64,000 nucleotides of DNA, from assembly GCA_049642065.1 (NCBI GenBank), contig JBAROK010000074.1:4114-68113 (forward strand), in the 5' to 3' direction. The translations under genes and the position numbers were made by a program. This DNA is from Candidatus Omnitrophota bacterium (GTDB taxonomy: Bacteria; Omnitrophota; Gorgyraeia; Tantalellales; Tantalellaceae). The notes below the pieces were generated by a model that saw nothing but the letters and a program-made list of their open reading frames with translations, had not been told where the DNA came from and made no database searches. Below are positions 1-51,314 of this stretch, one piece after another (position 1 is the first letter of the stretch; each line of letters opens with the position of its first letter).

Positions 1-260
1 CTTTCGTACAATTATGGCATGGCGCCAGATTCACATACAAAGTCGCGTTAGCCCAATCCGTGAAAGGTTCATCCAATGCCTCGGCCTGACGTATCGCTTC
101 CACTTCGGCATGAACAGCGTTGACCCCGTATTTGCTATGCGACTCCAGTCTTCTTCTTGCGACCGTAACCACTATGTTACCGTCCCCGTCAACTAACCTT
201 GCAGCAACCGGTATGTTAGGATCAAGCTCTCCAGCATTCACCTTTTCTTTCGCGAACCGA
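1..260 (-). other. Domain of the giant protein: CDA/TadA-type zinc-dependent nucleotide deaminase domain, partial; continues beyond the window
   Basis: ...LVDGDGNIVVTVARRRLESHSKYGVNAVHAEVEAIRQAEALDEPFTDWANATLYVNLAPCHNCTK matches the TadA/CDA signature. HAE (H/C-x-E) is about 28 residues before PCxxC. The HAE codons are at about 104-112 and the PC..C codons at 8-22. Confidence 0.7.
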
Positions 261-3200: not shown

Positions 3201-6200
3201 TTGTCCTTAGCTTTTCCCTTGTCAAAGAATGACGCTTCTCCTAGATCAGGATAACTCTTAAACAGTTTTTCTGTCCTTTTTATACTCTCTCTCAGGTACT
3301 CTATAGCCTCGTCATACCCGGCAAGCACCTTTTCGATCTCTTCGTCATTGATATAACGCAATTTTTTTCGGGCACTCAGTATTACTTCTTCCGCTTTCCG
3401 CTGCACGGTATCGACCTCGTTCAGGCCTTTTCTTAAGTACTTGTTCAGAGATATAGCCCTCCAGTTCCTTATCCTTAGCTTGAAAATGAACCTACCAACT
3501 CGTTCCAATAACCCTCCGCCTATATTCCAAAGAAAGTGGCCGATATGTATTTGCCGCAGAGCTATGTCCTGGATACCCTTGGAACATACAATGTTTTCCA
3601 TGTGAGCATGTATTTCCCTGTTTATGTCCCTGCATTCAACAAAAAGTTTTTCAACTTCATCCAGATGGAAATCTTCAGCTTCTACTTCCGAAAGAACCAC
3701 ACCGTCATCCCCGCGTCCCCCGGTATAAGTCCAATGATAATACTTCTCTCCTCTCCCGCAAAAGACCTTGAGCGTGGGATGTAGGAATTCACTGCTCGAC
3801 CATATCCTTTCGGGGTGTTTGCGCGCAGTAAGTATAAAAGGAACGATCTTTACCAGCGCATCCGGTCTATCCATATTAGGCATGACCTTCATGGTCCGGA
3901 GTAGATCGGGATTTTCAAAAAGATCTTCGTACCCGAACCTCTCCTGCAAGGTCTTCAAGGAAACTTCCCAATGCTGGAACAGTGAACCATACTCTCCGCC
4001 TGGCGTGTACGGATAACCAAATGTGTCGACCGAACCGAACTCAAAAAATTTCCATTCAGGAACAAAACCTATATAGACGATCGAACCGCCCATGGAATGT
4101 CTTCCGGTATTTCGGACATACGCACGAAGAAGTGACGCAAGATAGACCAGGGCCGCATCTGTTCCCGCATCGACCCCATACTCTCCGCCCATCTGTTCTC
4201 TCAATTTCACTATGAAATCTAAGGCTTTATCCTGGTTTGTACCCTTCCAGTAATGAACGCTTGGCTCAACTCTCTCCCCAAAATTAGCTGCCACCGGAAG
4301 ATTCAGTGATGTAATCGCTAGTGGATGTTTTGAAAGCGGCGCTAAGGCCCTGGCCATGCCATCTTCACCCTTCCATTCTGACGGCGGTGCTGATAGAGGC
4401 TTAGCTTCGGGCGCTTCTGGAAGCGGACGCGGGAAATGGATGATCCCGTCAATACCCTCAACGTTAACATCGAGCCCTCTAAAATCGATAAATCCATACC
4501 GCTTACCCCCCTTAACCAGGTCCATGATCGCTCTTACTACCGGCAGAGTAATTGCCTGATGTTCTATTCCAAAAATACTTCCGTGTTCTCCTTCGCAAAC
4601 AGCAGCAACAAGCCCGTAAGGGATACCTCTATCCTCCAGCTGCTTTGGTATCTGACTAGAATCTCTTATATGAGCGTAACCTGTGATTACTGCCATATGG
4701 GCACAAGGATCTTCCTTAAGCGCCTTCTCCATTTGCCCGGCAAGATATTTACCCATGTACATGCCACGCTGAGAGCTTTGCTCATTATCATCCCAGGATG
4801 GATCTCTCTCCCCTGCCGGCATATCAATAAAAACAACTTTAATCCCTAAACGCTGCGCGACCGTTACCAGCTGTTCAAGACGATGCGGTATCCAGCAACT
4901 CTCGGAGATCTCGCTTATATTATCAACCTTGAGATCCGACGGTATCTCCAGCCCCAGGTGGGTAACACCGGCAGCTTTGAGCTGTTCAAGATAATTGACA
5001 AAACCTTTCTGTATACCCAAAGCACCATGATGGGTATCGCCGATAACCAGCACGTTCCTATCGGCAAACAACCCCTTGAAATCTACACCCTCGTGCCACC
5101 GGTTCTCAACGATCTCTTCCCACTTCTCATTATTCGTTCCGAATAAACCGCTACCATCGACGACACTCAAGGGCTTTTCTACCTGCTCTATTCTCTTCTT
5201 CCCCCTAAACGCGTTGTATATCCGCTTTGCCAAACCAGCAACAATTCCGCAGATCTCGTAGATGATTATAACAACACCACCTACAAGACAAACAGCAAGT
5301 AACATAACTAGTGTTGCTGCCGCCCACGAGCTCAGTTCTTTTCCCGCTTCGCTAGCCTTTACTGCGGTCTCAGCGGCCTCGATTATCCCTGGGGTTAACA
5401 AGCCAATAAGAAATACCAACAATCCAACCGGTCCACGTGAAATACCCGAAGAACCTGAATTCCCTTCTTCCGCTTTCTTTCCCTTCTTTTCGTTATATTG
5501 CTCAACCGCTTTTATTACATATTTGTGTGGATCTTTTGCAACAATTCTTAACTTCTCGGTCTCAGGATCCAATAGAATCGGTACTCTTTCGCCCTCTTCG
5601 TCCCTCCTTATTTCTATCCGACCACCTTGGTTTACTATTACAGTGAAATCTACACCACCAAACAGTTTCCCGTCTTTAAAAACTCCTGTTTTTTGTTCGC
5701 TTTTTACCTTTTTCACTCGTTCTCTAAGCATCTTTATATTATGCTCAACTATAAGGCGCGCTGTCCTTGCTTCAGCCAGAGCGACTTTATCTGCGGACGT
5801 CCACGTGCTAGTGAGCTTCTCGTAATCTATCCCCCTCTTTCGAAGCACCCTATTCACTTCCTTGCGCGTCTCTTCTGCCTCTTCGAGAAGATGATCCCGG
5901 TATTTCCCTTCTCCGGCCTTCTCTGCTCTAAGTTTAAGTTCCGCGATCTGGTAAAAAAGCCCCTGTATTTCCTCCATCGCTTTATCTGATAATGTCATGG
6001 GCACTTCGACCAGATGCCCCCATCTTCCTTCAGGGTCCATCTTTATCTTTCCACTCTCATCGACTTTAAGGCTAGGTGTTTCATTAAAATAGAGCTTATC
6101 TCCTCTCATTACCAAGCCCTGTCTGAAAAGACCTTCAAGAGCATTTGTATCCATCGGTCCTCTTTGTTCTCTTATGGGTCCGGCATCCTCGAAAGCAAAC

Positions 6201-9200
6201 CTACTTGAAGTGCTGCGCCTTGCCCTTTTTACTGATTTCCCTTGTGCCGGCTCCTCAGCAAAAGGCATTCTCCTGCTATCTGACTTTTTCGGCGGCTTCA
6301 TTACTTTTGTCGTATCCTGTCCTGGGTACGGCAACTGAATTTCCTGCTTGTTTTCTCTTATATAATCGCTAAGATCTTTGTCTGCCAAAGGAAACATCTC
6401 GCGCTGAAGGATACGTAAAAGATAATGCGGATTCTCATCCCACCCTTCATCCCAACCTTTCTCCCCTTCCTCATCCCTTTGCTCCTCCATTATGAACTGC
6501 ATAGTGTCCGTGGACGGCACAATAGACGTCTGATCCTCTCCGTCAAATGATATGACTACGTACCCGGATTCCATCCTAAGCTCCATGATACCTTTTTTGA
6601 TCAGATACTCTCCTATCTCGTGGAATTCAGCGATCGGATTCTCCTTAAGTTCCGAATAAAAGGCCAGCAGGTCATTTTCGGATGACGTAAAAGCGAAAAG
6701 GTCTTCTACCAGCACCCTGAACGTATACTCCTTGGCCTTTGTCTGGGCGTACCGGACCAGCATAGGATAGATGATATCTCTATAGTAAAACTCATTACCG
6801 GCAATAGCCGAGAGATTGGCCCCCAAATCCCTCATATTCATAAGTTCCCGCGGGATCAAACCAACAACATGTCTGTTTCCCTTGGAATCTATCGCCCTAA
6901 ACTTGCTGTTATCCGGGGACACCATCTCCACCCTCGCACTATTACCTATCTGTAAAGAAGGGCTCACTCCCTCTTCTAAATATTTTATTGCCGCGTCGAC
7001 AGACGCAAACCGGTCGTTCGGATCCCTCCTGATGCATCTCATGATAAATTCCGCAAGAGCATCCGGGATATCTTTCCCTTCTTTTTTAGCCATATCACGT
7101 ATGTCTGTGGGTTCCACGCGGGATTTATTATTGAAGTATTCGGCAATATTCCTTCCGTCGTACGGCAAAGGTACTTTGCCAGTCAATGCTTTGTACAATA
7201 TAATCCCTAATCCGTACACATCAGTACTTTTGTTATATTTTCCTTCTTCATGCAGCGGAAAAACTTCCCAAGGAAGATATTCAGGAGTACCTCGCACATC
7301 ATTGATTTTAAGCTCCCCGCTTTCCGGGAAACGCAGAGCAAGATCAAAATCCACCAAGAAAACAAGACTGGAAAAATCAAATTTGCCGCCTTTTCCCGGT
7401 AGAAGCATATTTGCCGGTTTTATGTCGGTGTGAACTATCCTTTTGCCCTGCACCTTTCTGATAATTTCCAGAACTTTTTTTGCTAGAGTTGCGGCCTCAT
7501 CCGGATTGAGCTGTCTTCCTGAATCGATTACAGTATCCAATGACTCTCCCGGAACAAACTCCGTAACCATAAAGAAATCCTCTCTGCCGTTACCACGTTC
7601 CCAGCGACCCATATCAAGCCCCTTAATAACCCCTCCAACTTCGCTCAAATATCTCATAACAAAATAGCCCTTTAAAAAGCTTGGGAGTTTTCTTCGTAAG
7701 TCCTTTGCTCCGGAATAACGTAAAACTCTCACGGTAACATCTGCCCCAGTCTTTAAATCTTTCGCTTTATACACCATAGAATACTCTCCGGTACCTAATA
7801 ACTTCTCCAACCTGTATCTTCCGGCAAGCATTGACGGGTCGCGCGAAGTGGCTGTTTCCTGCACACTTTTGAACATGAGCCGCATATCTGACAGTAAAGA
7901 TTCCATCTCTTCGCCACTCATAAGAAAACGTTCTGTTCTGACTAATTCATCAATGACCCATCCGATCAAAGCCTCCCTCAAGCGCACCAGATATTCTTCA
8001 ACACGCTCATTTTTCTCCTCCCGATCCGTAGCAGGCTTAAAGCAAGACCGCGCTTGCGATTCGCCAAGCAATATTTCTCTAATCGCTACTTTTGCAGAGT
8101 CATCCATATTTACAAGAGCGTCCAAGCTCTCACTAAAGACCTCATATTCCCCAGTCTCTGATTCTAGCTGCCCCTTAACATCTTTAAGGTTTTCAAAAAA
8201 CCTATCGACCAGAGAAGATTCCGACTCGACCGGATTATACCCACTGAAGGTAGAAGACAACAGTTCCACAACTAACCGGTAGTGCTTATCGCTAAAAAGC
8301 TTAATTTTTGTAGTCAGTTCTTTATCGTCGTCAACACTCCTATCAATAGAACCGTCTATGGAACTGTCCGTCAAAGAACGTCCGATCTGCGACGTATCTG
8401 GCTCCTCGTCACCAAAAAGGGTAAGCTGTCTCGGTTTGCCACGAGGCCTATCTTCCATCCGTGACCTGACTTTTTCTACAAGTTCCCGCGCCTTCTCTTC
8501 GGATAGTGACATCCACAAATCCTTTTCCCACTCATCCTCGGTCCAGGCAGTCCAGGTTATTGGCATACTTCTGAACCCTATGCCGCGAAAGAAATCTTTT
8601 GCGGACTTTCCTCCCTGTTTATCTTTATATTCTTCGTCCTCGGCAGGATGTACTATATACAGATTACGGCTAACTTCTTCTTCCGGTTCAAGATATACGG
8701 CTTCTCCGTCCGGAGCTACCATAGTGTTCTCTTGCTCTAACTCTTCCATGGCACGTTCCGTTATCTTGGCAATAAGAATTTCTCCTATTCCTTCACTCCG
8801 GTGCTTTGCGGAAACCTCCATGTAATCCCCTACCCATACTTTCCTGTTCTTCTCCTTGAATGGGAACTCTCCTTTCGTTGAAACAGATAGCCCAAGGATA
8901 TTCCCAGATGCGTCTTCCAGCTTTATCATACAAACCGGTCCACTCCCACCAGCAGCCCTTTTCGCGGCACTGTCCCACATCCCTCTGCTAAAGTAAGGCT
9001 TCTCTTCCTGTTCGAACCACCTGTCCAGCAGACTGCTCATCGCAGCAGAATCATTCACTTCCCGGGCATAATACCTCTTGTTCCCGATGCTGAATGGTCC
9101 GCTTATTGCGTCCTTGTGAGAAGACGACGCCTGCATTTGCTGTATCAGGCGAGTAAGCTCTATATCCTCTTGATCCCTACCAAATGTACCCTTACCAAAA

Positions 9201-11791: not shown

Positions 11792-11835
11792 AGTTATATT
11801 AATTATAATTGGTTAGTCGAATAAAAAGTATATAT

Positions 11836-21415: not shown

Positions 21416-21500
21416 TGGTGGGGAGAGAAGGATTTGAACCTTCGTAGGCTAAGCCGACAGATTTACAGTCTGCTCCGATTGACCACTCCGGCATCTCCCC
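21416..21500 (-). tRNA. tRNA-Tyr (anticodon GTA)
   Basis: Reverse complement GGGGAGATGCCGGAGTGGTCAATCGGAGCAGACTGTAAATCTGTCGGCTTAGCCTACGAAGGTTCAAATCCTTCTCTCCCCACCA. Long variable arm typical of bacterial tRNA-Tyr. CCA encoded. Confidence 0.9.
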
Positions 21501-21566
21501 CATTAAATTCGTAGGCGTATTCTATATTATTATCGTTTATTTGTAAAGAGCTTTGTCTTTAAATAA

Positions 21567-21641
21567 TGGAGCCGGCGGAGGGATTCGAACCCCCGACCAG
21601 AGGTTTACAAAACCCCTGCTCTACCCCTGAGCTACGCCGGC
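21567..21641 (-). tRNA. tRNA-Thr (anticodon TGT)
   Basis: Reverse complement GCCGGCGTAGCTCAGGGGTAGAGCAGGGGTTTTGTAAACCTCTGGTCGGGGGTTCGAATCCCTCCGCCGGCTCCA. Anticodon loop TTTGTAA. Confidence 0.9.
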
Positions 21642-21704: not shown

Positions 21705-22460
21705 CTAATTTTCGGTAGTTACTTCCACTTTCACGGAATGTATGTCTCCTTCTAGCCCTTCATATCTGAGCCATTCGAAGTCCGGACGGGCGGAATGCCA
21801 AGCATAGGCCCTGGGGAAAAAGACCTTCACTACATCAAGCAGCCCAAGCCTGGGATCGAGCTGGAGTTTATATGCGCGTCTTTTGTGGCCGTTGATTTCC
21901 ACATCCTCTGTCTTGACCACACTGAGATACATATTGTAGAGTCCCGGTTCCTCGCTCACCATCTGTATCTTTGCTATTCTCATCCCTTTCTCTAGCATCT
22001 TCTGGACGTAAAGCCCCAGAAGAAGCCTGTTCACGGCATCCTTCGTGAACTTGAACTTTTTCGTACGGGAAATCTTCTTAGGAATGTCCTCGTGAAGGCA
22101 GGTGACACTCTTTTTAACGGGGTCGTAATCCTGCTTTTCGAGCCTGATCATTTTACCGTCTTCGTCGAACACGCGTTTTACAAGTTTGAGCGGCATGACG
22201 TTCTCTTCCGTACTTTTGAATTCCATCTCCGCCACCCAGGATATAGGCCCTTCGAAACTGGAATACACGCCTTCACCCTTCTCCGTCAGTATATATACAT
22301 CGCCCTCTTTCTTCCTTATCTCGGTCTCGGCTTCCCACCGCTTGCCGCCTTCCATATCGCGGCCTACATACTCCGTCCGGTGAACGTCTTCGGAAGCAAG
22401 GGCCGGGCAGCTACCGGCAAGGATAAGAATACAGAGTAATGATGTAAGTTTTTTCTTCAT
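21705..22460 (-). CDS. Secreted hypothetical protein
   Basis: Signal peptide MKKKLTSLLCILILAGSCPALA. 251 aa. No recognised motif. Confidence 0.5.
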   Translation of the reverse strand: MKKKLTSLLCILILAGSCPALASEDVHRTEYVGRDMEGGKRWEAETEIRKKEGDVYILTEKGEGVYSSFEGPISWVAEMEFKSTEENVMPLKLVKRVFDEDGKMIRLEKQDYDPVKKSVTCLHEDIPKKISRTKKFKFTKDAVNRLLLGLYVQKMLEKGMRIAKIQMVSEEPGLYNMYLSVVKTEDVEINGHKRRAYKLQLDPRLGLLDVVKVFFPRAYAWHSARPDFEWLRYEGLEGDIHSVKVEVTTEN

Positions 22461-22517
22461 TATACAGCTATTTTAACATGCCGGATGGGCACAATAAAGA
22501 TTATTCGACGAGCATGT

Positions 22518-22928
22518 TCACCTAAAAAGAAAATATTTCCTTGCTAAGAAATTCCAGATAACAACAATCATCGTGGCGACCAATTTCGAGAACAGATAGT
22601 GAAAATTCACATTTTCAGTAAAAACCCAGATAATATACTGGTTCAGGATAAGTCCCACAACTCCGATTACAATAAAAATCGAGATCTCAAAGTATCTGTT
22701 TTTGAATGTACGCTTGTCAAAGACCCATCTAACATTCAAGATATAGGCTGTTACTGCTCCCAGTAAAAATGCCACTAAAGCCGCTGTTAAATAGTATATT
22801 TTGAATATTTCTACGAATACAATCAGCGAGCAATAATCTACTCCACACGCAAGAGTGCCCGACAAGACATAGCGGAATGCCTGTATAAAAATATTGTCTG
22901 TTGACTGTCTGAAAAGCTTCTCTACCAT
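22518..22928 (-). CDS. GtrA-family membrane protein
   Basis: About 135 aa, four transmembrane segments. FRYVLSGTLACGVDYCSLIVF...NFLARKYFLF matches the GtrA-like pattern. Confidence 0.6.
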   Translation of the reverse strand: MVEKLFRQSTDNIFIQAFRYVLSGTLACGVDYCSLIVFVEIFKIYYLTAALVAFLLGAVTAYILNVRWVFDKRTFKNRYFEISIFIVIGVVGLILNQYIIWVFTENVNFHYLFSKLVATMIVVIWNFLARKYFLFR

Positions 22929-22937
22929 ACTTGACTA

Positions 22938-23708
22938 TTATCTTTTTACTGATTCCGGAGTGGTCTCTTCTTTGTTTTCTAAGGCTATCAGCAAAGCCTC
23001 TCTTACCCTGTTCGCTGCCGCTGAAGAGAATTCTTTATTCCCCAAAGGATAAAGATCATCAAAACTAACTGGTGGAAGGATTGTTATTTTTGCCTTGCCG
23101 GGATTAATACTTTTACTGCCCTTTCTTTGTATATTCGTACTGCCATCAATAGATATGGGGATGACTCTAACCTTTGTCTCCTGGAGAATAGAAAAACTTG
23201 AAGGTTTAAATTTCCCAAGCTTATCATTGAATGAACGCGTTCCTTCAGGGAAGATAACAATTGAATTACCTGACCTTATAAGAGTTATTATCGTTTGATA
23301 AGTTTTAAAAGATTTCCGGATATTACTGCGTTCTATAGGTATATATTCCTGAAGTTTCATATACGCACCAAAAACAGGCGTATCAAAAAGCTCTTGTTTA
23401 GCCAAGAATAAATACTGCCCCGGAACAACTCTAAAAATAATAGGCCAGTCCAGATCGCTCTGGTGGTTCGGCATATATACGACAGTTTCATCTTTGGGCA
23501 GATTCTCCTGCCCCTTAACTTCTAAGCGTATCCCGCCTATTTTTATAAGCGTCCATGCCCAGAACTGCTCACTTTTACGGTACATCTCCCTATTCCCAGG
23601 CCAAATAACCGCATCAAAGAATAGCCCCAAAGCCAGAATAACTAGCCAGGCTATCCACCAAATTATTGAATGTATAAACTTGAATATATTTTTAAATATT
23701 TTTGCCAT
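22938..23708 (-). CDS. Lysophospholipid acyltransferase (PlsC-like, 1-acyl-sn-glycerol-3-phosphate acyltransferase family)
   Basis: HxxxxD motif PNHQSDLD and FPEGTRS motif. N-terminal transmembrane helix. Confidence 0.75.
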   Translation of the reverse strand: MAKIFKNIFKFIHSIIWWIAWLVILALGLFFDAVIWPGNREMYRKSEQFWAWTLIKIGGIRLEVKGQENLPKDETVVYMPNHQSDLDWPIIFRVVPGQYLFLAKQELFDTPVFGAYMKLQEYIPIERSNIRKSFKTYQTIITLIRSGNSIVIFPEGTRSFNDKLGKFKPSSFSILQETKVRVIPISIDGSTNIQRKGSKSINPGKAKITILPPVSFDDLYPLGNKEFSSAAANRVREALLIALENKEETTPESVKR

Positions 23709-23711
23709 GAA

Positions 23712-24491
23712 CTATTGTTCCTTTAATCTTACAACAGCCTCTCTAAGCTTAGCAGCCAGCTCCAAAGAAGATTGTTTATTTGTATGATCGTAATATTCAT
23801 CAAAAATAACGGGCTTACCAATATTCACCATAACTTCCCCAGGGTGCAGTTTCCATGCCCCTTTTGGCAAAACCCCAAAAGTTCCGTCAATCGATATGGG
23901 GACAACCGGCTTTCTGCTATGCTGAATAATGATAGATGTTCCCCTGCCGAACTCGCCTATATTACCGTCCTTGGTCAGCTTACCTTCCGGAAAAATCACA
24001 AAAGATCTGTTTTTCTTAAGTAAATCTATTATTACATGAATCGTTTTTACGGACTTTTTCCTGTCTTTTCTGTCCAAAGAAAGAAACCCACACCTTGTAA
24101 TGTGATCCCCGATTAAAGGCACCTTAAAAAGTTTCCTCATTATAATAAATTTAAACGGAGGTGGCAAATATTTAAGCAAAATAAATATATCAAGATAACT
24201 TTGATGGTTCGGCGTGAAAATAACATTCGTATCTTTGGGAATATTTTCTAGACCTGTGACTTTTACTTTAATAAGCACACTTTTAAGTATAAGGTTGCCC
24301 CATAATCGCGCCCCTTTCTGATAAAACAATTTCTTTTTATATGTACTCTTTATAAATAGGGCTATTAAATACGAGAGTTTGTTTATAACAATGCAGTAAA
24401 AGAACACTAAGAACCAGAATATTGCGCTATGAATAGTTCTTAACATCCCAGTCAATTCACTTCCTCTCTCTTTTTTATACCCATCCAGCAT
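23712..24491 (-). CDS. Second PlsC-like acyltransferase
   Basis: TPNHQSYLD and FPEGKLTKDG motifs. Confidence 0.7.
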   Translation of the reverse strand: MLDGYKKERGSELTGMLRTIHSAIFWFLVFFYCIVINKLSYLIALFIKSTYKKKLFYQKGARLWGNLILKSVLIKVKVTGLENIPKDTNVIFTPNHQSYLDIFILLKYLPPPFKFIIMRKLFKVPLIGDHITRCGFLSLDRKDRKKSVKTIHVIIDLLKKNRSFVIFPEGKLTKDGNIGEFGRGTSIIIQHSRKPVVPISIDGTFGVLPKGAWKLHPGEVMVNIGKPVIFDEYYDHTNKQSSLELAAKLREAVVRLKEQ

Positions 24492-25033
24492 ACAACACGG
24501 TCAGAACATAAATGCACAATCGTAAATAGTACCAGCGTCACTACTGCGACTTTCACACTAGGCCGATAGACTACCGAACTTAAAACCATAGCCCCTATTA
24601 TCCAATCGATCTGATCCCATGGAAACCAGGGCCTGCCTGAGGGTTTATTCAGCCTGCGTTTTATGAAACTTTCAATTAAATCACCTAAAAGAGCTCCTCC
24701 GCCCATTAAAGCGCCTATTAAGATAAAATTAAACTGTCTATAATCGATTACAGTGTTATTTTTGAAAAAATCGCTGTTAAAGAACAAAAGTGCCTGGATG
24801 CCGGCTACAAGTATTCCCGTTATAACCCCGACCACAAGCCCTCTCCATGTTTTATTCTTCCCGAAAATTTCACGCCCATTTAATGTTTTCCCGGAATCAA
24901 TAGGCACCGCAAGCTTCTCCATGGGTTTTTTAAGTACTCCGGGTAGGGGAAGCCGGTTACCACAAGAAGCGTTATGGTTACCCAAGGCAGCTGGCAATAA
25001 ATACCAAAGACAGGCAAATATTAGTTTGAACAT
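24452..25033 (-). CDS. DUF46 / CDP-archaeol-synthase (CarS)-like integral-membrane CTP-transferase (CdsA superfamily)
   Basis: GKNKTWRG and GDLIESFIKRRLN motifs, shared by CarS/CdsA-type cytidylyltransferases. About 190 aa, polytopic. Confidence 0.55.
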   Translation of the reverse strand: MFKLIFACLWYLLPAALGNHNASCGNRLPLPGVLKKPMEKLAVPIDSGKTLNGREIFGKNKTWRGLVVGVITGILVAGIQALLFFNSDFFKNNTVIDYRQFNFILIGALMGGGALLGDLIESFIKRRLNKPSGRPWFPWDQIDWIIGAMVLSSVVYRPSVKVAVVTLVLFTIVHLCSDRVVCWMGIKKREEVN

Positions 25034-25036
25034 AAT

Positions 25037-25618
25037 CTATTTATTGAGCTTTCTGTAAACATGAGCTATTCTCTGCAGCACTGTAAGGTGGGAAAAAACG
25101 GCGACTATTACTAGTCCCCAAAATACCTGGTTTATGCAAAAGCTGGCCCCCAGTATTATTATCCTGACTGACCGGGGCATAAGCCCAACTTCACATTTTT
25201 GATCCAGACTCTCTGCTTTGGCCCTGGTATAACTCACAACCAAAGATCCCACTATTGCAATTACGACCAATATAACGTAATCCGGCTCACCCAGCTTTAA
25301 AAAGTAAAGTAATATCCCCAAGTAAATAACCGAATCCGCGTAACGATCAAGTACGGAATCCCAAAAATTGCCGAAAACTGTAGTCTTGCCTGTAGCCCGG
25401 GCTACACTCCCATCAAGAGCATCAAAAAAACCAGCAACCCAGATAAGTATACCTATAATTAGATAACTAAGTTCACCTTTAGCAATAAAAAAAGCAACAA
25501 GGCAGTTAACTGAAAGCCCTAGTAAGGTTACCTGGTTTGGAGTTATTTTTGTCTTTGCTAAAAGATTGCCCGGGGCTTGCGCAATTAGCCGAATGAGTTT
25601 CCCTGTTGGATCGGACAT
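25037..25618 (-). CDS. CDP-alcohol phosphatidyltransferase (probable phosphatidylinositol-phosphate synthase type)
   Basis: D-x2-D-G-x2-A-R...G-x3-D-x3-D motif (FDALDGSVARATGKTTVFGNFWDSVLDRYAD). Sits beside the inositol-1-phosphate synthase gene. Confidence 0.7.
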   Translation of the reverse strand: MSDPTGKLIRLIAQAPGNLLAKTKITPNQVTLLGLSVNCLVAFFIAKGELSYLIIGILIWVAGFFDALDGSVARATGKTTVFGNFWDSVLDRYADSVIYLGILLYFLKLGEPDYVILVVIAIVGSLVVSYTRAKAESLDQKCEVGLMPRSVRIIILGASFCINQVFWGLVIVAVFSHLTVLQRIAHVYRKLNK

Positions 25619-25624
25619 TATAAA

Positions 25625-26770
25625 TTACCTCTTAGCCCCTTTCTTTTTTCCCTTAACTCTTTTTGCCTTAGCCTTTTTCTTCTTCCCTTTGCCGTAAGTT
25701 GCGATAAAATCCTCTACCATCTCGCGGGCTGTATTGTCATCGTACTGGACGGGGGGTGACTTTTTAAAATATGCGCTGGGGCCTAAAAGTGCACCTGAAA
25801 TCCCGTTATCCAGTGCAATCTTCGCGCAGCGAACCGCATCTATAACGACTCCAGCGGAATTTGGTGAGTCTTCCACCGAAAGCCTGCATTCTAAGTTCAT
25901 GGGAAGATCTCCGAAATGTCTGCTTTCTATTCGCAAGAAACAAATTTTATTATCTTTCTGCCACGGCACATAATCACTTGGTCCTATATGAACATCATCT
26001 TTATCTATAGTCCTACCTCGATTCTGTATCTGCGAGACAACTGCATTTGTTTTTGATATCTTTTTTGAGGTAAGCCGTTCTTCTTCTTTCATGTTAAGAA
26101 AATCCGTATTGCCTCCGGTATTGAGCTGGTAGGTGTGATCTACGGGCATTCCTCTATCCAAGAATAGATTTGTCAGAACCCTGTGGAGGATCGTTGCCCC
26201 TACCTGTGACTTTATGTCGTCACCTATAACCGGCAGGCCTTTTTTCTTGAAACGCGTCTGCCAGTATCCTTCTCTGGCAATAAAAACAGGAACACAGTTA
26301 ATAAAAGCGCACCCTGCGTTTAACACCTGTTCGACATACCATTTTGTAGCTTCTTCAGAACCCACGGGCAAATAATTAATAACTACATCGGTCTTTGTTT
26401 TCCTCAGAATGCCTGCTACATCATCGGTTCTCCCTGGGGCTTTCTTGACAATCTTCGATACATACTTGCCAAGCCCATCATGTGTCATCCCACGGTAGAC
26501 CTTAACTCCAAGACGGGGAACTTTGGCGAAAATAGCAGTATTGTTAGGTTTTGTATAAATAGCTTCGCTTAGATCTTTGCCTACCTTATTTTTATCGATA
26601 TCAAAAGCAGCTGAAAACTCTATGTCTTTTATATGATAACCTCCCAGGTTAACATGCATCAGTCCCGGTATAAAATCTTTGTCCTTTGCATTCTTATAGT
26701 ATTCCACTCCCTGGACAAGAGAAGAAGCACAATTGCCAACTCCGATAATAGCAACTCTAATTTTAGACAT
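25625..26770 (-). CDS. myo-Inositol-1-phosphate synthase (archaeal/bacterial type) with a Lys-rich C-terminal tail
   Basis: N-terminal Rossmann [18 protein letters not shown] is typical of archaeal-type MIPS. The protein ends in [21 protein letters not shown]. Confidence 0.75.
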
Positions 26771-27131
26771 AACTCTATACTCCTCTATTTTTATAAATCC
26801 ATACTGAATCTCTGTATCGATCTTCTATATATTTTGTCACTTCTCTAATAGTTAACATTTCTTCACCTTCTTCATTCGGTATCTCAATATCAAAATTCCC
26901 GTCTAAGCTGCTTAGGTCACAAATTAATTAGACTAATTATTATATAATGATAAAATTCTAAGTCAAATATATATATAATAAAAATCCCGCAGCATATTAA
27001 ATACCAGCGGGGTCTCGAGCGGAGCACCCAAATAGTGTCTATAATACAATCAAATAGAAACAAACTAAAAAACTATTTAATTTAAAGGAGTTACGTGGAT
27101 TTGCACTTAGGGGATATACCTGTACGCTAAC

Positions 27132-28583
27132 TTAATCTTTGCTTATAGGAAGATGGATGGTAGCGATAGTACCCTTCCCTACCTCGCTGGTAAATTTCAG
27201 GTCCCCCTCATGAGCTTTGACAATACTATAACATAAAGGGAGCCCTAGCCCTGTCCCCTTTTCCTTGGTAGTAAAAAATGAATCAAATACCCTCTTGAGG
27301 TTCTCCTCCGCTATTCCGCTGCCTGTGTCCTGGATATCTATACACAGATCCTCACCCTTCTTTTGGGTCCTGACCGTGATCGTCCCGCCATCCGGCATAG
27401 CATCTGCCGAGTTATTCACAAGGTTCAAAAACACTTCATACATACGCTTCTCATCGATCTTCACCATTGGAGGTGAGGGCATATACTCTTTTCTGATCCT
27501 TATGTTCTTCAAAGAGTATGGATGCTCTATAAGATGCAGGACATAATCTAAACTCTCGTTGATATCGACTTCTTTAAAATCGCCTTTACTCGGTTTTGAA
27601 AAATGCAAAAACCTTTGGATAAGATCATTTGCCCTGTCACATTGTTCGCAGATTATCTCCAAGCCTTCCTTGATATCCTCCTGCCTTGCCCCCTCCATCA
27701 ATGAAATTTGAGCTCTTCCCAATATTACCTGAAGGGGGTTTTTTATCTCATGTGCCATATCTGCCATCATTTCTCCGAGCTGCGCAAGCTTCTGGCTAGT
27801 CTCTACCTTCTTCCGATATGTCAAGTTCCTTAGCGTTGCCTGTATAGCAATTATCTTGCCCTCTTTCCTTAACGGAATGCCTTTGACTTCATAGGGAACT
27901 CTTCCCCCCTCTTTAGTCATGCCTTCCACTTCAATGACCGGGGGCTCTTTTCCTATCAGGATCTTCCCCATGGCAGCCATCAATTTCGGCACAAACTCCT
28001 TTGCGATTATGCCACACGTAAAAACGTTCTTGCCTTTCATATCATCTCGGCTATAACCGCTTTCTTCTTCGAATTTTTTATTCAGATCAAGAAATCTACC
28101 TTCAGGAGTAACAACAGCGATCAGATCCGCTGCATTCTCAAAAAACATATAATATTTCTCTTCACTCTCCTTCAATGCCATTTCTGCTTTTTTATGCTCC
28201 TTACGTATCTCCATTTCCCCTAATTCGCGATCGATAGCTACGCTAAGACGCATTAGTTTGCCCTTGGTAATAAAATCCTGTGCACCGGCTTTCATTGCCT
28301 CCATGGCTATATCTTCCTCCATCCCCCCGGAAACTATCAAAAAAGGAAGATCAATATTCTTCTCCTGCATCACTCTCAACGCCCCAAGACCACTGAATTT
28401 TGGAAGCTTATAATCCGCTATAATGACATCCCACTCGCTTTTATCAAGTGCGTCAGACATCTCTTCCTTTGTCTCAACTCGCTTGACCTCAGGCGCATAT
28501 CCTCCCCGCTCCAGCTCTTTCGTAAGCAAAAGAGCATCATCTTCAGCGTCCTCTATCATTAACACACGTAATCTTCCGGGCAT
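27132..28583 (-). CDS. Hybrid sensor protein: N-terminal receiver, PAS and histidine kinase
   Basis: Receiver (LMIEDAEDD...DVIIADYKLP...K). PAS (ENAADLIAVVTPEGRFLDLN). HisKA H-box (MAHEIKNPLQ). HATPase (DTGSGI...GTGLGLPL). Confidence 0.8.
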   Translation of the reverse strand: MPGRLRVLMIEDAEDDALLLTKELERGGYAPEVKRVETKEEMSDALDKSEWDVIIADYKLPKFSGLGALRVMQEKNIDLPFLIVSGGMEEDIAMEAMKAGAQDFITKGKLMRLSVAIDRELGEMEIRKEHKKAEMALKESEEKYYMFFENAADLIAVVTPEGRFLDLNKKFEEESGYSRDDMKGKNVFTCGIIAKEFVPKLMAAMGKILIGKEPPVIEVEGMTKEGGRVPYEVKGIPLRKEGKIIAIQATLRNLTYRKKVETSQKLAQLGEMMADMAHEIKNPLQVILGRAQISLMEGARQEDIKEGLEIICEQCDRANDLIQRFLHFSKPSKGDFKEVDINESLDYVLHLIEHPYSLKNIRIRKEYMPSPPMVKIDEKRMYEVFLNLVNNSADAMPDGGTITVRTQKKGEDLCIDIQDTGSGIAEENLKRVFDSFFTTKEKGTGLGLPLCYSIVKAHEGDLKFTSEVGKGTIATIHLPISKD

Positions 28584-28586
28584 GTA

Positions 28587-29030
28587 TCAGTCCTTCGTTT
28601 TCGGGGGCTCGTTAAGAAGCAGCCAATATAATCCAAGCTGGCGCACCGCTTCGCTGAACTGCTCAAAATCAACGGGTTTTCTGACATAACTGTTACACCC
28701 AAGGTTGTACCCATTCAGCACGTCGCTTTCCTCTTGTGAGGAAGTCAATATAACCACAGGAACGACCTTTGTTCTTTCATTGGAACGCAGTTTCTTTAAC
28801 ACTTCAAGCCCGTTCAATTTAGGGAGTTTTATGTCCAGAAGAACGACTGCCGGCATATTTCCCGGTTCAAGCTCGGAATATTTTCCCTCATGAAATAAAT
28901 ACTCAAGTGCATCCTCTCCATCATTCAATACTACAACTTCATTGGTGATATTATTATGCTTCAATGCGCGTATCGTAAGATCAATGTCGTCCTGATTATC
29001 CTCGACCAGAAGAATAGCTTTATCACTCAT
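28587..29030 (-). CDS. Single-domain response regulator receiver
   Basis: ILLVEDNQDD...VVLLDIKLPKLNG...VVILTSS...K. Confidence 0.75.
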   Translation of the reverse strand: MSDKAILLVEDNQDDIDLTIRALKHNNITNEVVVLNDGEDALEYLFHEGKYSELEPGNMPAVVLLDIKLPKLNGLEVLKKLRSNERTKVVPVVILTSSQEESDVLNGYNLGCNSYVRKPVDFEQFSEAVRQLGLYWLLLNEPPKTKD

Positions 29031-29039
29031 GATCTCCCC

Positions 29040-31325
29040 CTACTTGTTCGGTATCGTAAAATAAAACGTAGCGCCTTTCCCTACCTTGCTATCCGCCCAG
29101 ATGCGTCCGCCATGACGGGTAATTATACGCTTGACCGAAGCAAGACCTATGCCGGTCCCCGGGAATTCTTTTTCCGAATGTAAGCGCTGAAAAGGCCCGA
29201 AAAGCTTATCAGCATAAGCCATATTGAACCCGACTCCACTATCTTTCACGAAAAATGCCCTTTCACCCGCAAGATCCATACAGCCAACCTCTATTTTTGC
29301 ACCCGGCCTTGTTTGGGTAAATTTCCATGCGTTACCAATAAGGTTCTCAAGAACTATCTTCATCAAGCGGTCATCCGCTTTTGTTTTCAACTTCGGATTA
29401 ACCGTAAAATCAACTTTTCGTTTCGGTTCGCTGCTTTTTAAGTCCTTTATTACCTCCTTAGCAATACTGCTTATATCAATATCCTTTTTATGGATCTCGT
29501 GGCGCGTCACGCGCGAAAGCATTAAAATATCCTCAATAAGTTGTGCCATACGCTGGCTTGCTTCACGTATACGGTGCAAATATCCCTTGGCATCCTCATC
29601 CAGCTTATCTTGATAATCTTCCAGTATGATCTGACTGAACCCGTCCATGCTCCTGAGTGGGGCTCTGAGGTCATGCGAAACGCAATAACTGAATGCTTCC
29701 AGTTCCTTGTTTGCCTCACCGAGTTCCTCGGTCCTGATATCTACAAGTTCTTCAAGATGCTGCCGGTATGTTTCAAGCTCAAGTTCAGCTTTTTTCTTGT
29801 CAGTAATATCTTTTACATGTTCTATAACCCCCACCATATTGCCTTTAGAGTCCTTAAATGGGTACGATGAAAGGAGAATCCACCCCTTAGGCTTCTCCTC
29901 AGAAGGATAAGGCACTACCGATGACTGCACTTCGCCAGTCTCAATCGTCTTGACCGCAGAACACCAAGGACAGATACTATCTCTCTTCTGATAAACTTCA
30001 TAGCATTTTTTACCGATAAGTGGCCCTGCCTCACTATACATCTTTTTCATCCACAGGTTAGTTTTAACCACGTTCATATCCTTGTCCAAAATATTTATGC
30101 CATCTTGTATGCCATCAAAAATTGACTGCAAAAAACTTTCACTATCCCTGAGTTCTTCCTCCGCTCTTTTACGCTGCGTTATATCATGCGCATACAAGTT
30201 CGCGTATCCGCCATCGATCACAGGTGCTACATGAACCGAATATATCCGCCCATCCACCTCAGCCTCTTCTACCGTATCCTCCCCCGTCCTAATTGCTTCG
30301 CTAATTAGTTTCGTCCATGTATCGGACGCGTTCTTTCCCACACCGGTATTCCAGTTTTTGAGCATACCTTCAGCAGACTCATTCGCATACAGCACTTTAC
30401 CATCCTTATCAACACGTAGCACTGGGCTGGGGTTTTCTGACGGAAACTTAGCAAGATTTTGTATTTCTTCTTCGGCCTCCTTCTTCTCAGTAATATTCTG
30501 AACCATTGAAAGAACGCCTACCACCGTACCATCAGACTCTTTCAATGGTGTATTCGCCCAGCTACAGACAATAGTCCTCCCATCTTTTGTAACATTTTCA
30601 TTTACACTATGTGCAGTTTCGTCCGCTGCGAGTAGACGACTCCAAATAACATCTACATGAGACTGGACCTCTTTCGGCACAATAAGGTCATATGCGTGTC
30701 TAGCTTCCGCTTCCTTTGCGGTAAACCCGAATATCTCAGTAGCTGCAGGGTTCCATGTTTTAACCCGAAACTCTTTATCCCAAACGATCAACCCTATGGG
30801 CATCCTATTAAATTGCAATTGCAGATATTCTTCTAAACCCCGGGTCTCTTCCTGCATCTTTTTTATTTCTGTTATATCTACTATCGTGTTAGCATAATAT
30901 TCAGGCTTTCCTTCTTCATCTTTAATAATAAAAATGTTCTCGATCACTGGAAATTCTCTGCCTTTACCGGAACGAAGAACGGATTCCCCTTCCCATTTTC
31001 CCTCATCTTGAACGATGCTATGCACTTCCTCAACAAACCTCTTATAAGATCCCGCCGAATAATAGTCACTGATATTCTTTTTGTAGCAATCTTCTGGCTT
31101 CTCTTCATCGAACATACGACAGAGAGCGGGATTAACATACATTACCTTTCCTTCCAAAGTAGCCATCCCGAACCCTTGGCCTGCGGTCTCCGCGAATCTG
31201 TGAAAAATGGATATCTCTTTCTCCGCTTTCCTGCATGAGGATTCGACACCTTCAAGCTCCTTAACTTGTCTCCGTAGGCTATTTACCTCTTCTATCAGTT
31301 GTTCCTTAGTCTCTTCTTTTCCCAT
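29040..31325 (-). CDS. Multi-PAS sensor histidine kinase
   Basis: N-terminal coiled coil, multiple PAS/PAC repeats. H-box SHDLRAPLRSMDGF. HATPase GTGIGLASVKRII...GKGATFYFTIP. Confidence 0.8.
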   Translation of the reverse strand: MGKEETKEQLIEEVNSLRRQVKELEGVESSCRKAEKEISIFHRFAETAGQGFGMATLEGKVMYVNPALCRMFDEEKPEDCYKKNISDYYSAGSYKRFVEEVHSIVQDEGKWEGESVLRSGKGREFPVIENIFIIKDEEGKPEYYANTIVDITEIKKMQEETRGLEEYLQLQFNRMPIGLIVWDKEFRVKTWNPAATEIFGFTAKEAEARHAYDLIVPKEVQSHVDVIWSRLLAADETAHSVNENVTKDGRTIVCSWANTPLKESDGTVVGVLSMVQNITEKKEAEEEIQNLAKFPSENPSPVLRVDKDGKVLYANESAEGMLKNWNTGVGKNASDTWTKLISEAIRTGEDTVEEAEVDGRIYSVHVAPVIDGGYANLYAHDITQRKRAEEELRDSESFLQSIFDGIQDGINILDKDMNVVKTNLWMKKMYSEAGPLIGKKCYEVYQKRDSICPWCSAVKTIETGEVQSSVVPYPSEEKPKGWILLSSYPFKDSKGNMVGVIEHVKDITDKKKAELELETYRQHLEELVDIRTEELGEANKELEAFSYCVSHDLRAPLRSMDGFSQIILEDYQDKLDEDAKGYLHRIREASQRMAQLIEDILMLSRVTRHEIHKKDIDISSIAKEVIKDLKSSEPKRKVDFTVNPKLKTKADDRLMKIVLENLIGNAWKFTQTRPGAKIEVGCMDLAGERAFFVKDSGVGFNMAYADKLFGPFQRLHSEKEFPGTGIGLASVKRIITRHGGRIWADSKVGKGATFYFTIPNK

Positions 31326-50443: not shown

Positions 50444-50455
50444 CTATATTCCTTC

Positions 50456-51313: not shown

Positions 51314-51314
51314 A

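Follow-up and report, generated by a model that had tools for sequence, protein, structure and literature searches.

Six tightly packed open reading frames lie on the minus strand of the window (the whole 64-kb stretch analysed here, from a metagenome-assembled genome of an uncultured Omnitrophota bacterium) between positions 22518 and 26770, all at the coordinates assigned to them in a preliminary description of this locus (Table 1). The Pfam assignments of all six exceed the curated cut-offs, with PF01553 occurring twice. Intergenic gaps measure 6, 3, 3 and 9 nt, beside the junction between the CarS-like gene and PlsC-1, where the two frames either overlap by 40 nt or, with the second ATG as the PlsC-1 start, stand 6 nt apart; the two PlsC genes are possibly translationally coupled to the CarS-like gene.

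Table 1. Genes and promoter-like site of the operon, in window coordinates.
Feature	Position	Strand	Details
MIPS	25625-26770	-	381 aa; PF01658
CDP-alcohol transferase (CAPT)	25037-25618	-	193 aa; class I, AIP/PIP-synthase type; PF01066
CarS-like (DUF46) integral-membrane CTP:lipid-phosphate cytidylyltransferase	24452-25033	-	193 aa; PF01864
PlsC-1 acyltransferase	23712-24491	-	259 aa; PF01553; alternative start ATG 24446
PlsC-2 acyltransferase	22938-23708	-	256 aa; PF01553
GtrA-family small polytopic membrane protein	22518-22928	-	136 aa; PF04138
Secreted beta-barrel-like protein, seventh operon gene	21705-22460	-	251 aa; weak DUF3108 match
Promoter-like site TTGACT-16 nt-TATAAT	26939..26966	-	AT-rich region upstream of MIPS

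The top-scoring promoter-like site of the 360-nt AT-rich intergenic region, one of two 11-of-12 matches there, is a match to consensus only and precedes the MIPS ATG by about 170 nt; no minus-strand terminator was found inside the operon. A further gene, encoding a beta-barrel protein, starts 57 nt downstream of GtrA. Since its product is 52% identical to that of a gene located between PlsC-2 and GtrA in two other loci (L003 and L004), the true unit comprises seven genes, one more than the six of the preliminary description. These seven genes probably form a conserved operon of one Omnitrophota lineage, read from a single promoter.

MIPS (myo-inositol-1-phosphate synthase) scores 121 bits against PF01658 and 479 bits against TIGR03450, under the latter's cut-off of 638, and carries a polybasic tail that is present in every Omnitrophota and CPR homolog examined. 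Among proteins of solved structure it comes closest to M. tuberculosis Ino1 (1GR0), at 431 bits and 56% identity over 354 aa. The enzyme had been called archaeal-type, which is wrong: the closest match is the actinobacterial Ino1, and on this similarity we classify the protein as bacterial-type.

The CAPT retains the complete signature DxxDGxxARx8GxxxDxxxD at residues 66-91, and scores higher against the archaeal NCBIfam model for archaetidylinositol-P synthase (AIPS; 165 bits, cut-off 180) than against the bacterial PIPS model (129 bits, cut-off 170), falling just under both curated cut-offs. In the alignment, R152 and R183 correspond to R155 and R195 of MtPIPS, which bind inositol-phosphate (PMC4634129). 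An identity as PgsA, the alternative named in the preliminary description, is ruled out by a score of only 44 bits against the pgsA model and by the retention of both inositol-phosphate-binding arginines, such that scores and arginines together mark the protein as a class I, AIP/PIP-synthase-like transferase.

The CarS-like protein matches PF01864 end to end (103 bits) and CTP_transf_1 locally (35 bits). Among NCBIfam models it scores 127 bits against CarS (NF003114, cut-off 148) versus 16 bits against CdsA, and its sole PDB match is A. pernix CarS (ApCarS; 5GUF, E 9e-15). Both previously quoted motifs could be confirmed, GKNKTWRG fitting GKxKTWxG and DLIESFIKRR fitting DLxESxxKRR; all family-wide conserved residues are kept, including those common to crystallised ApCarS, and no CdsA-type signature was found in the protein. 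By these scores the DUF46 protein falls outside CdsA, a placement that had been considered for it, and we assign it as a true CarS-family member. Its nearest relatives outside Omnitrophota (at most 45% identity) belong to Patescibacteria/CPR bacteria and DPANN archaea, and because CPR- and DPANN-labelled sequences intermix in a neighbor-joining tree of CarS relatives, clade membership is not predictive of lipid type.

Both acyltransferases have an N-terminal TM helix together with the HX4D and FPEG motifs (HQSYLD and FPEGK in PlsC-1, HQSDLD and FPEGTR in PlsC-2), and at 33% mutual identity they are distinct paralogs. Scores against PF01553 are 98 bits for PlsC-1 and 117 bits for PlsC-2; against TIGR00530, PlsC-2 exceeds the cut-off of 102.95 with 112.8 bits, and PlsC-1 stays under it (91 bits against 103). 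The sole PDB match of either protein is the T. maritima PlsC (LPAAT) 5KYM, with E-values of 3e-30 for PlsC-1 and 1e-23 for PlsC-2. That two PlsCs always accompany CarS points to an ester-linked diacyl backbone.

GtrA matches PF04138 over its full length (81 bits) and is found in most copies of the Omnitrophota operon, but as the least fixed member, which follows PlsC-2 or the barrel gene in some copies and stands upstream of MIPS in others. The preliminary description had taken GtrA as a hint of glycosylated lipid products; no glycosyltransferase gene was found in the operon, so that GtrA alone is weak evidence for glycosylation. The beta-barrel protein has an N-terminal signal peptide and an EipB/DUF1849-like fold: its AF2 model (pLDDT 91) finds 6NTR (DUF1849) as top fold match, with a TM-score of 0.55, and matches LprG, LolA and YmcC weakly. 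Of the Omnitrophota loci examined, 17 carry its gene, and the family comprises only 45 clusters, in which every named member is from Omnitrophota.

Approximately 27 independent Omnitrophota loci, whose flanking genes differ and are unrelated, keep the core MIPS-CAPT-CarS-PlsC-PlsC in strict colinearity, a recurrence that places the arrangement far beyond chance. Outside Omnitrophota, CarS adjoins a CDP-alcohol transferase in 38/52 loci of CPR bacteria and DPANN archaea. A module of PIPS-like CAPT, PHP phosphoesterase and CarS is kept in 12 CPR loci, with an adjacent MIPS in four, and is partly present on two short contigs; MIPS beside CarS is a feature of some Saccharimonadia-type loci. Fusion proteins that join CarS to CAPT or to PAP2 also exist. 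The CarS-CAPT pair is a module shared with, and widespread in, CPR bacteria and DPANN archaea, to which Omnitrophota added MIPS and bacterial acyltransferases. One CarS relative resides in a cluster of the form CAPT-CarS-x-PIG-L-GT4, resembling a GlcN-inositol-lipid cluster.

Domain content, the CAPT signature with its arginines and the conserved gene order support the preliminary view of this locus as an inositol-phospholipid operon. From family membership, catalytic motifs, and gene order with its conservation, all directly observed, we infer what is in our judgement the probable function: a self-contained route from phosphatidate (PA) through CDP-diacylglycerol to phosphatidylinositol phosphate (PIP) and possibly PI, an inositol glycerophospholipid. 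MIPS would convert glucose-6-phosphate to L-myo-inositol-1-phosphate, and the two PlsC paralogs would acylate glycerol-3-phosphate (G3P) or lysophosphatidate to yield PA. The CarS-family enzyme would then combine the lipid phosphate with CTP to form a CDP-lipid, most likely CDP-diacylglycerol, from which the AIP/PIP-synthase-type transferase would make PIP with inositol-1-phosphate as the acceptor. Dephosphorylation to PI probably falls to a phosphatase encoded elsewhere; no PIP phosphatase was found in the operon or the 64-kb window, and the end product could therefore be PIP itself or a further modified lipid. GtrA and the secreted beta-barrel protein may serve in transport or handling of the lipid at the inner membrane, across it or beyond. 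For CarS of A. fulgidus and of M. thermautotrophicus membranes, use of unsaturated archaetidic acid (DGGGP) is reported together with discrimination against fatty-acyl PA, and complementation of an E. coli cdsA mutant by the A. fulgidus enzyme failed (reviewed in PMC4244643 and PMC9385802). As characterised archaeal CarS reject PA, its use here requires a shift in specificity that sequence leaves unproven.

The role of the acyltransferases admits another, in our view unlikely, reading, in which PI(P) is still made but the PlsCs, instead of building PA de novo, add acyl chains back to lyso-lipids, either lyso-PA or lyso-PI, that were imported or generated, or else impose a particular acyl composition, with CarS drawing on bulk PA. 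The position of PlsC-1 under the LPAAT cut-off and local matches of both PlsCs to lysophospholipid acyltransferase (Aas-type) models are in line with this, as is the fact that bacteria normally use PlsB or PlsY, rather than PlsC, to attach the first acyl chain to G3P (PMC7242380). Moreover, Omnitrophota and CPR are small-celled and partly host-dependent, and lipid recycling has been proposed for them. However, two distinct paralogs side by side in every locus fit sequential acylations at least as well, and the operon includes neither a lipase nor a transporter.

The ester linkage that we favour also bears on the preliminary suggestion of an ether-linked or archaeal-like intermediate, under which the CarS-like and AIPS-like pair would use a lipid phosphate of isoprenoid or ether type, which the cell makes itself or takes from archaea serving as host or prey, to give an archaetidylinositol-phosphate-like lipid in a bacterium. 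Such a lipid would agree with the higher scores of both proteins against archaeal models, with the preference of known CarS enzymes for DGGGP over PA and with the presence of DPANN archaea among the nearest CarS relatives. Velamenicoccus archaeovorus, a member of Omnitrophota, reportedly attacks archaea. Yet genes for GGGPS, DGGGPS (UbiA), G1PDH, GGR or a polyprenyl synthase were found neither in the 64-kb window nor within the 10 kb flanking related loci, the relatives from CPR bacteria are equally close, and their intermixing with DPANN sequences deprives clade membership of predictive value. With the two acyltransferases invariably beside CarS pointing to ester links, an ether or archaeal lipid is unsupported, and we regard it as distinctly improbable.

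We consider it very improbable that the CarS-like protein serves another lipid, such as a polyprenol, as its CTP-dependent kinase or activator and so feeds GtrA-linked glycosylation. CTP-dependent polyprenol kinases, as exemplified by the dolichol and phytol kinases, do belong to the CTP_transf_1 clan, GtrA proteins are usually tied to polyprenyl-phosphate sugars, and the protein scores under the CarS equivalog cut-off; but it matches the CarS model end to end with all conserved residues kept, it always directly follows a CDP-alcohol transferase, an enzyme that depends on a CDP-activated donor, and the operon pairs its least fixed member, GtrA, with no glycosyltransferase. A soluble inositol phosphodiester osmolyte (of the di-myo-inositol phosphate or glycerophosphoinositol type) is scarcely credible as the product: the CAPT family does include DIPP synthases, which likewise use inositol-1-phosphate as acceptor, and AF2299 is marginally the top PDB match of the CAPT, but the score against the DIPPS model is only 65 bits (cut-off 580), neither a domain nor a gene for a cytosolic inositol-1-phosphate cytidylyltransferase is present, and what the operon provides instead is a membrane CTP-transferase together with two acyltransferases.

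The proposed phosphatidate-based route shares with the mycobacterial/actinobacterial PI pathway (Ino1, CdsA and the PIP synthase PgsA1) the inositol-1-phosphate acceptor, a PIPS-type class I transferase with conserved signature and two arginines, and a MIPS closely related to Ino1. It differs in that the CDP-lipid would come from a CarS-family enzyme rather than CdsA, and in that MIPS, CDP-lipid synthase, two PlsCs and PIPS share one operon, which is devoid of PimA/PatA-type genes. With the archaeal archaetidylinositol pathway (CarS, archaetidylinositol-phosphate synthase and MIPS) it has in common the CarS and CAPT families, which score best against archaeal NCBIfam models, the CarS catalytic residues and the logical order; here, however, the host is bacterial, both proteins fall just under the archaeal equivalog cut-offs, and the operon combines PlsCs with a bacterial-type MIPS, with GGGPS, DGGGPS and G1PDH not nearby. 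The BT_1522-BT_1526 cluster of Bacteroides thetaiotaomicron (Heaver et al. 2022, PMC9246714) likewise uses MIPS and a PIP synthase to reach a PIP-DAG intermediate, but depends on the housekeeping CdsA and also encodes an inositol-ceramide synthase and a PgpA-like PIP phosphatase. The Omnitrophota cluster, by contrast, lacks a phosphatase and brings a CarS-type activator of its own, along with two PlsCs, GtrA and the periplasmic barrel protein.

The CPR module (Saccharimonadia/Parcubacteria) also places a CarS-like gene after a PIPS/AIPS-like CAPT, and its adjacent MIPS proteins are 61-67% identical to that of the window and bear the same polybasic tail. Between CAPT and CarS, however, it carries the PHP-family phosphoesterase, a candidate PIP phosphatase that the Omnitrophota operon lacks; it is without PlsC, GtrA and barrel protein, and its CarS is only 27-45% identical to the window protein. 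CDP-inositol routes (IPCT/DIPPS in Rhodothermus marinus, and the pathway proposed for Prevotella/B. vulgatus) similarly start at inositol-1-phosphate and use a CDP-alcohol transferase, but there a soluble NTP-transferase activates the head group, while in Omnitrophota a membrane CTP-transferase would activate the lipid and no NTP-transferase gene is present.

The substrate of the CarS-like enzyme in this operon is directly testable. The choice between CarS and CdsA is taken to mark the divide between archaeal and bacterial lipids, and hence the pairing found here matters.

All six open reading frames of the inositol-lipid operon claimed in the preliminary description were recovered on the minus strand with identical limits, and each product scored above the curated Pfam threshold (Table). 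Neighboring genes are separated by gaps of 6, 3, 3 and 9 nt, and the junction of the CarS-like gene with the PlsC-1 gene is a 40-nt overlap, or a 6-nt gap if the second ATG is the PlsC-1 start. The CarS-like gene is thus tightly packed, and possibly coupled in translation, between a PIPS-type CDP-alcohol phosphatidyltransferase (CAPT) gene and two bacterial acyltransferase genes. As judged by sequence comparison, a seventh gene also belongs to the operon, since other genomes have a gene with 52% identity to it in the position between PlsC-2 and GtrA. No terminator-like sites were found on the minus strand within the operon and no Rfam elements in its leader; a riboswitch or other RNA element 5' of the operon was ruled out, as Rfam gave a downstream tRNA only.

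Table. Genes and sites of the probable inositol-lipid operon, and the related module of Patescibacteria/CPR
Feature	Position	Strand	Remarks
MIPS (myo-inositol-1-phosphate synthase)	25625-26770	-	Pfam above threshold
CAPT (CDP-alcohol phosphatidyltransferase)	25037-25618	-	Pfam above threshold
CarS-like protein	24452-25033	-	PF01864
PlsC-1 acyltransferase	23712-24491	-	PF01553
PlsC-2 acyltransferase	22938-23708	-	PF01553
GtrA	22518-22928	-	PF04138
Seventh gene, 251 aa	21705-22460	-	57 nt 3' of GtrA
Sigma-70-like site TTGACT-16-TATAAT	26966-26939	-	one of the two best matches in the region, by consensus only
CPR CAPT-PHP-CarS module	related locus L032, 6723-8546		equivalents in loci L036, L038, L039, L042, L044, L048, L052, L053, L055, L057, L058, L072

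An AT-rich spacer of 360 nt separates MIPS from the histidine-kinase gene upstream, the nearest of a group (27132-31325, minus strand) that encodes a hybrid response-regulator/PAS histidine kinase, a stand-alone receiver and a multi-PAS histidine kinase. A regulatory link between operon and kinases is unproven, because sensor kinases adjoin the operon in one related locus (L001) and not in two others (L003, L004). Directly downstream of the operon lie tRNA-Tyr and tRNA-Thr genes (21416-21641), and G+C is lower in the operon region (22000-28000; 0.40-0.41) than elsewhere in the window (0.43-0.48); together with neighborhoods that differ from genome to genome, these features suggest that the operon has moved as a unit. 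The other genes of the window are ordinary chromosomal ones (PolA, Rho, RF1, FtsH, TilS, PdxJ and a formate-THF ligase/FolD cluster), and no lipid genes occur outside the operon in its 64 kb. The C1 cluster (49703-53629, minus strand) comprises formate-THF ligase, an FTCD_C cyclodeaminase-like gene, FolD and an MTHFR-like gene; these are genes of C1 metabolism and the Wood-Ljungdahl methyl branch, in keeping with descriptions of acetogenesis in certain Omnitrophota classes. At the other end, one uninterrupted frame (2-11812, minus strand), at least 3,937 codons long, extends past the window start, with SAM-methyltransferase domains in its N-terminal 1,000 aa and a cytidine/dCMP-deaminase-like domain beyond them; it possibly belongs to the giant genes described for Omnitrophota.

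The publicly annotated CarS-like gene carries the automatic label 'CDP-archaeol synthase'. The PF01864 profile covers residues 1-187 of its 193-residue product (103 bits; cut-off 22), and a PDB search returned the A. pernix CarS structure (5GUF, E 9e-15) as its sole match. Both motifs quoted in the preliminary description are present, GKxKTWxG as GKNKTWRG and DLxESxxKRR as DLIESFIKRR. We checked the catalytic and polar CarS positions (PA..N, P.D, G..KT..G, GD...S..KR, DQ.D and the H in the last helix), and found that 18 Omnitrophota sequences show no variation at the positions that ApCarS shares and that are at least 70% conserved among 46 CPR/DPANN/archaeal CarS. The changes specific to the Omnitrophota lineage are A18G, P22A and G181V. 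The assignment to CarS rather than to CdsA, its usual bacterial counterpart, had already been proposed and held up against the NCBIfam models (CarS 127 bits vs CdsA 16 bits). CdsA identity itself was rejected: PF01148 matched only locally (35 bits, residues 60-128), NF008635 gave 16 bits (cut-off 385), no PDB match to T. maritima CdsA appeared at E<=1, and a regex scan found no match to the PROSITE CdsA signature, S-x-[LIVMF]-K-R-x4-K-D-...-H-G-G-x-x-D-[RK]-x-[DE]. Given the end-to-end profile match, the PDB match, the conserved residues and the absence of a CdsA-type signature, the protein is, at the level of sequence, a genuine member of the CarS family, not certified as iso-functional with the archaeal CDP-2,3-bis-(O-geranylgeranyl)-sn-glycerol synthase, as its score against the archaeal equivalog model NF003114 (126.9 bits) lies below the cut-off of 148.

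The CAPT encoded next to it carries the complete signature D1xxD2G1xxAR...G2xxxD3xxxD4 (DALDGSVARATGKTTVFGNFWDSVLD, residues 66-91). Its closest class is the archaetidylinositol- and phosphatidylinositol-phosphate synthases (AIPS/PIPS), with scores that lie below the equivalog cut-offs and so do not certify either function (AIPS NF040950, 165.1 bits, cut-off 180; PIPS NF045883, 129.3 bits, cut-off 170) and yet are far higher than those for other classes (pgsA 44, pssA 25 and DIPPS 65 bits). The identity with PgsA that the preliminary description had raised as a challenge to its reading did not materialize, with TIGR00560 at 44 bits (cut-off 109) and PRK10832 at 20 bits (cut-off 304). In characterized PIPS enzymes two arginines, the first in an RxxR motif, bind the phosphate of inositol phosphate (RsPIPS R153/R191, MtPIPS R155/R195; PMC4634129), and in a phmmer alignment to 6H53 the MtPIPS pair aligns with R152 (in an RSVR motif) and R183 of the CAPT. 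DIPP synthases, too, would be expected to have such arginines.

The inositol phosphate for this step would come from the MIPS, which matches PF01658 with 121 bits. The 'archaeal-type' label first attached to it proved unjustified, as it shares 56% identity with M. tuberculosis Ino1 (1GR0; 431 bits, 354 aa); its score against TIGR03450 (479 bits) is under the cut-off of 638, so it is not the mycothiol-specific equivalog. All Omnitrophota and CPR MIPS examined (window 25625-25700; loci L001-L027, L032, L053, L055 and L057) have a C-terminal tail that is rich in Lys/Arg and variable in sequence, K/R making up 5-16 of the final 25 residues. The tail, which is absent from M. tuberculosis Ino1, might anchor the soluble enzyme at an anionic membrane close to the CAPT. 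The two acyltransferases share 33% identity and both hold the HX4D and block III motifs (HQSYLD and FPEGK in PlsC-1, HQSDLD and FPEGT in PlsC-2). The sole PDB match of each is T. maritima PlsC (LPAAT, 5KYM), and the TIGR00530 cut-off of 102.95 is exceeded by PlsC-2 (112.8) but not by PlsC-1 (91). GtrA, a small polytopic membrane protein, matches PF04138 over profile positions 1-117 of 117 (81 bits), with three merged hydrophobic stretches in a hydropathy scan.

The seventh protein has a signal peptide and belongs to a family of only 45 clusters, whose named members are all Omnitrophota. A single-sequence AlphaFold prediction (pLDDT 39) was set aside in favor of an AF2 model from a 30-sequence alignment, which predicts a beta-barrel-like domain (pLDDT 91). 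In Foldseek comparison of this model against the PDB, the closest fold was the periplasmic DUF1849 protein 6NTR (TM 0.55, E 4e-6), and the lipid carriers LprG (LprG-PIM), LolA and YmcC resembled the model weakly (TM 0.2-0.3). The DUF3108 profile PF11306 reached 21 bits (cut-off 26).

To place the operon in a wider context we scanned related loci, one genome per species, and obtained 72, of which about 27 are from Omnitrophota when metagenomic loci are added. Wherever a name is given, every CarS-like homolog in the 62-97% identity range belongs to Candidatus Omnitrophota. The order MIPS-CAPT-CarS-PlsC1-PlsC2 is identical in all of the roughly 27 Omnitrophota loci where the contig allows, while the flanking genes vary, implying that the operon is a selected unit rather than a set of chance neighbors. 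Its 3' part is less fixed: GtrA precedes or follows the barrel gene, stands alone, lies 5' of MIPS, or is missing together with the barrel gene, and among the Omnitrophota loci examined, 17 have the seventh gene with the operon. One metagenome-assembled genome (MAG), CAZHIO01, carries the operon's CAPT-CarS on two separate contigs (L016 and L027; 70% and 67% CarS identity to the window), indicating either two copies or a bin of mixed strains. The taxon names of several third-party TPA_asm 'binchicken' MAGs contradict the sequence relationships (e.g. uncultured Planctomycetia, Methanosarcinales, Gammaproteobacteria, Pseudomonadales, Bacillota and Pristimantibacillus; loci L008, L010, L012-L014, L016, L017, L026, L027, L030, L041, L044, L045, L050, L053, L054, L056, L062, L063 and L078). 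These labels look unreliable, because loci titled 'Planctomycetia' hold the Omnitrophota operon at 69-85% CarS identity, and we did not rely on them for taxonomy.

Combined, these assignments would chart a route in which MIPS supplies inositol-1-phosphate, the PlsC pair forms phosphatidate (PA), the CarS-family enzyme converts the lipid phosphate to a CDP-lipid, and the CAPT joins the two into phosphatidylinositol phosphate (PIP). Dephosphorylation of PIP to phosphatidylinositol (PI) would be expected by analogy with mycobacteria and Bacteroides, and GtrA and the secreted barrel protein could move or hold the lipid past the cytoplasmic leaflet. The operon would work like both the mycobacterial/Bacteroides PIP route and the archaeal archaetidylinositol route. 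No PIP phosphatase (PgpA, PAP2, HAD or PHP) was found in the operon or among window ORFs of at least 150 aa, and one may be encoded elsewhere in the genome.

We consider it probable, if by no means assured, that the operon is a self-contained pathway for diacyl PI or PIP. The diacyl assignment is purely contextual, made because the tightly packed PlsC pair is invariant and no ether or isoprenoid lipid gene lies within reach. A variant of the same pathway, in which the PlsCs act in remodelling or salvage, seems rather unlikely. We give still less credence to an archaeal-type or hybrid lipid; characterized archaeal CarS do accept unsaturated archaetidic acid (DGGGP) and discriminate against fatty-acyl phosphatidate (PMC4244643, PMC9385802), but two PlsCs stand invariably beside CarS, and ether and isoprenoid lipid genes are missing from the window and from the 10-kb flanks of related loci, a context which argues that the Omnitrophota enzyme acts on a lipid other than DGGGP. 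Polyprenol activation or a soluble inositol phosphodiester has little probability, and a DIP osmolyte was ruled out because there is no IPCT.

The diacyl PI(P) reading can be set beside the more distant relatives of the enzyme. In a library clustered at 50% identity, Omnitrophota CarS form 1-2 representatives, after which scores fall from 267 to 159 bits; the next relatives (at most 45% identity) come from Patescibacteria/CPR and DPANN archaea (Woesearchaeota, Nanoarchaeota), with Thermoplasmatota and Aeropyrum CarS more distant still. In a rough neighbor-joining distance tree, rooted at its midpoint and lacking support values, Omnitrophota are monophyletic and sit on a long stem inside a mixed CPR/DPANN radiation. 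By profile search of all fetched loci, a CDP-alcohol transferase lies within about 1 kb of CarS in 38/52 non-Omnitrophota loci, and a PlsC gene adjoins CarS in none of them. Natural fusions also occur, of CAPT with CarS (proteins P0164 and P0182) and of PAP2 with CarS (P0205 and P0228). The pairing, the fusions and the CPR/DPANN loci together mark CarS-CAPT as an old, mobile two-gene module for lipid activation and head-group attachment in small-genome prokaryotes.

Within this module, 12 loci of Saccharimonadia/Parcubacteria type combine a PIPS/AIPS-like CAPT, a PHP phosphoesterase and CarS, and two short contigs hold part of the arrangement. From the module, PI synthesis would be predicted for the CPR bacteria that carry it, with the PHP protein a candidate PIP phosphatase where the Omnitrophota operon has none; no homolog of it was found in the window. 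In four loci a MIPS accompanies the module, 61-67% identical to that of the window. A further locus on a 583-kb scaffold (L079, 7399-11200) has CAPT and CarS followed by one other gene, a PIG-L-family deacetylase and a GT4 glycosyltransferase, a layout that suggests a GlcN-inositol-lipid (GPI-core-like) pathway. The association of CarS-CAPT with inositol is therefore one that reaches beyond Omnitrophota.

Inositol phospholipids are rare in bacteria, and the known ones, in Actinobacteria and Bacteroidetes, draw their CDP-lipid donor from CdsA; the distinction between CarS and CdsA is one enzymatic marker of the archaeal/bacterial lipid divide. The Omnitrophota operon is a chimera of the mycobacterial/Bacteroides and archaeal routes, in which bacterial-type MIPS and acyltransferases enclose a CarS/AIPS-like pair of archaeal family. 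The searchable literature has no description of a PI operon linked to CarS in either Omnitrophota or CPR, and two Omnitrophota genome papers make no mention of lipids. On CarS, Villanueva et al. (2021) note only its absence from Cloacimonetes, and Coleman et al. (2019) do not cover it.

The Omnitrophota enzyme may accept ordinary diacyl PA, or may serve in making or recycling an inositol lipid of archaeal (isoprenoid or hybrid) type, and CarS-family proteins may be what supplies the CDP-lipid for inositol (and other) phospholipids throughout whole lineages of ultra-small bacteria (Omnitrophota, CPR). As the CarS gene sits between PIPS-type and acyltransferase genes in an arrangement that is conserved in an Omnitrophota lineage and has an echo in CPR bacteria, the operon offers a compact, clonable test case of 4-7 genes for whether CarS-type enzymes serve ester lipids or bacteria handle archaeal-type lipids. 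There is a slim chance that the bacterium makes an inositol lipid of isoprenoid, ether or hybrid type; were it true, or were CarS the general CDP-DAG synthase of these lineages, the finding would be highly interesting. The reading predicts PI or PIP in the membranes of some Omnitrophota and Saccharimonadia, which would bear on how ultra-small, host-dependent cells build and decorate their envelopes.
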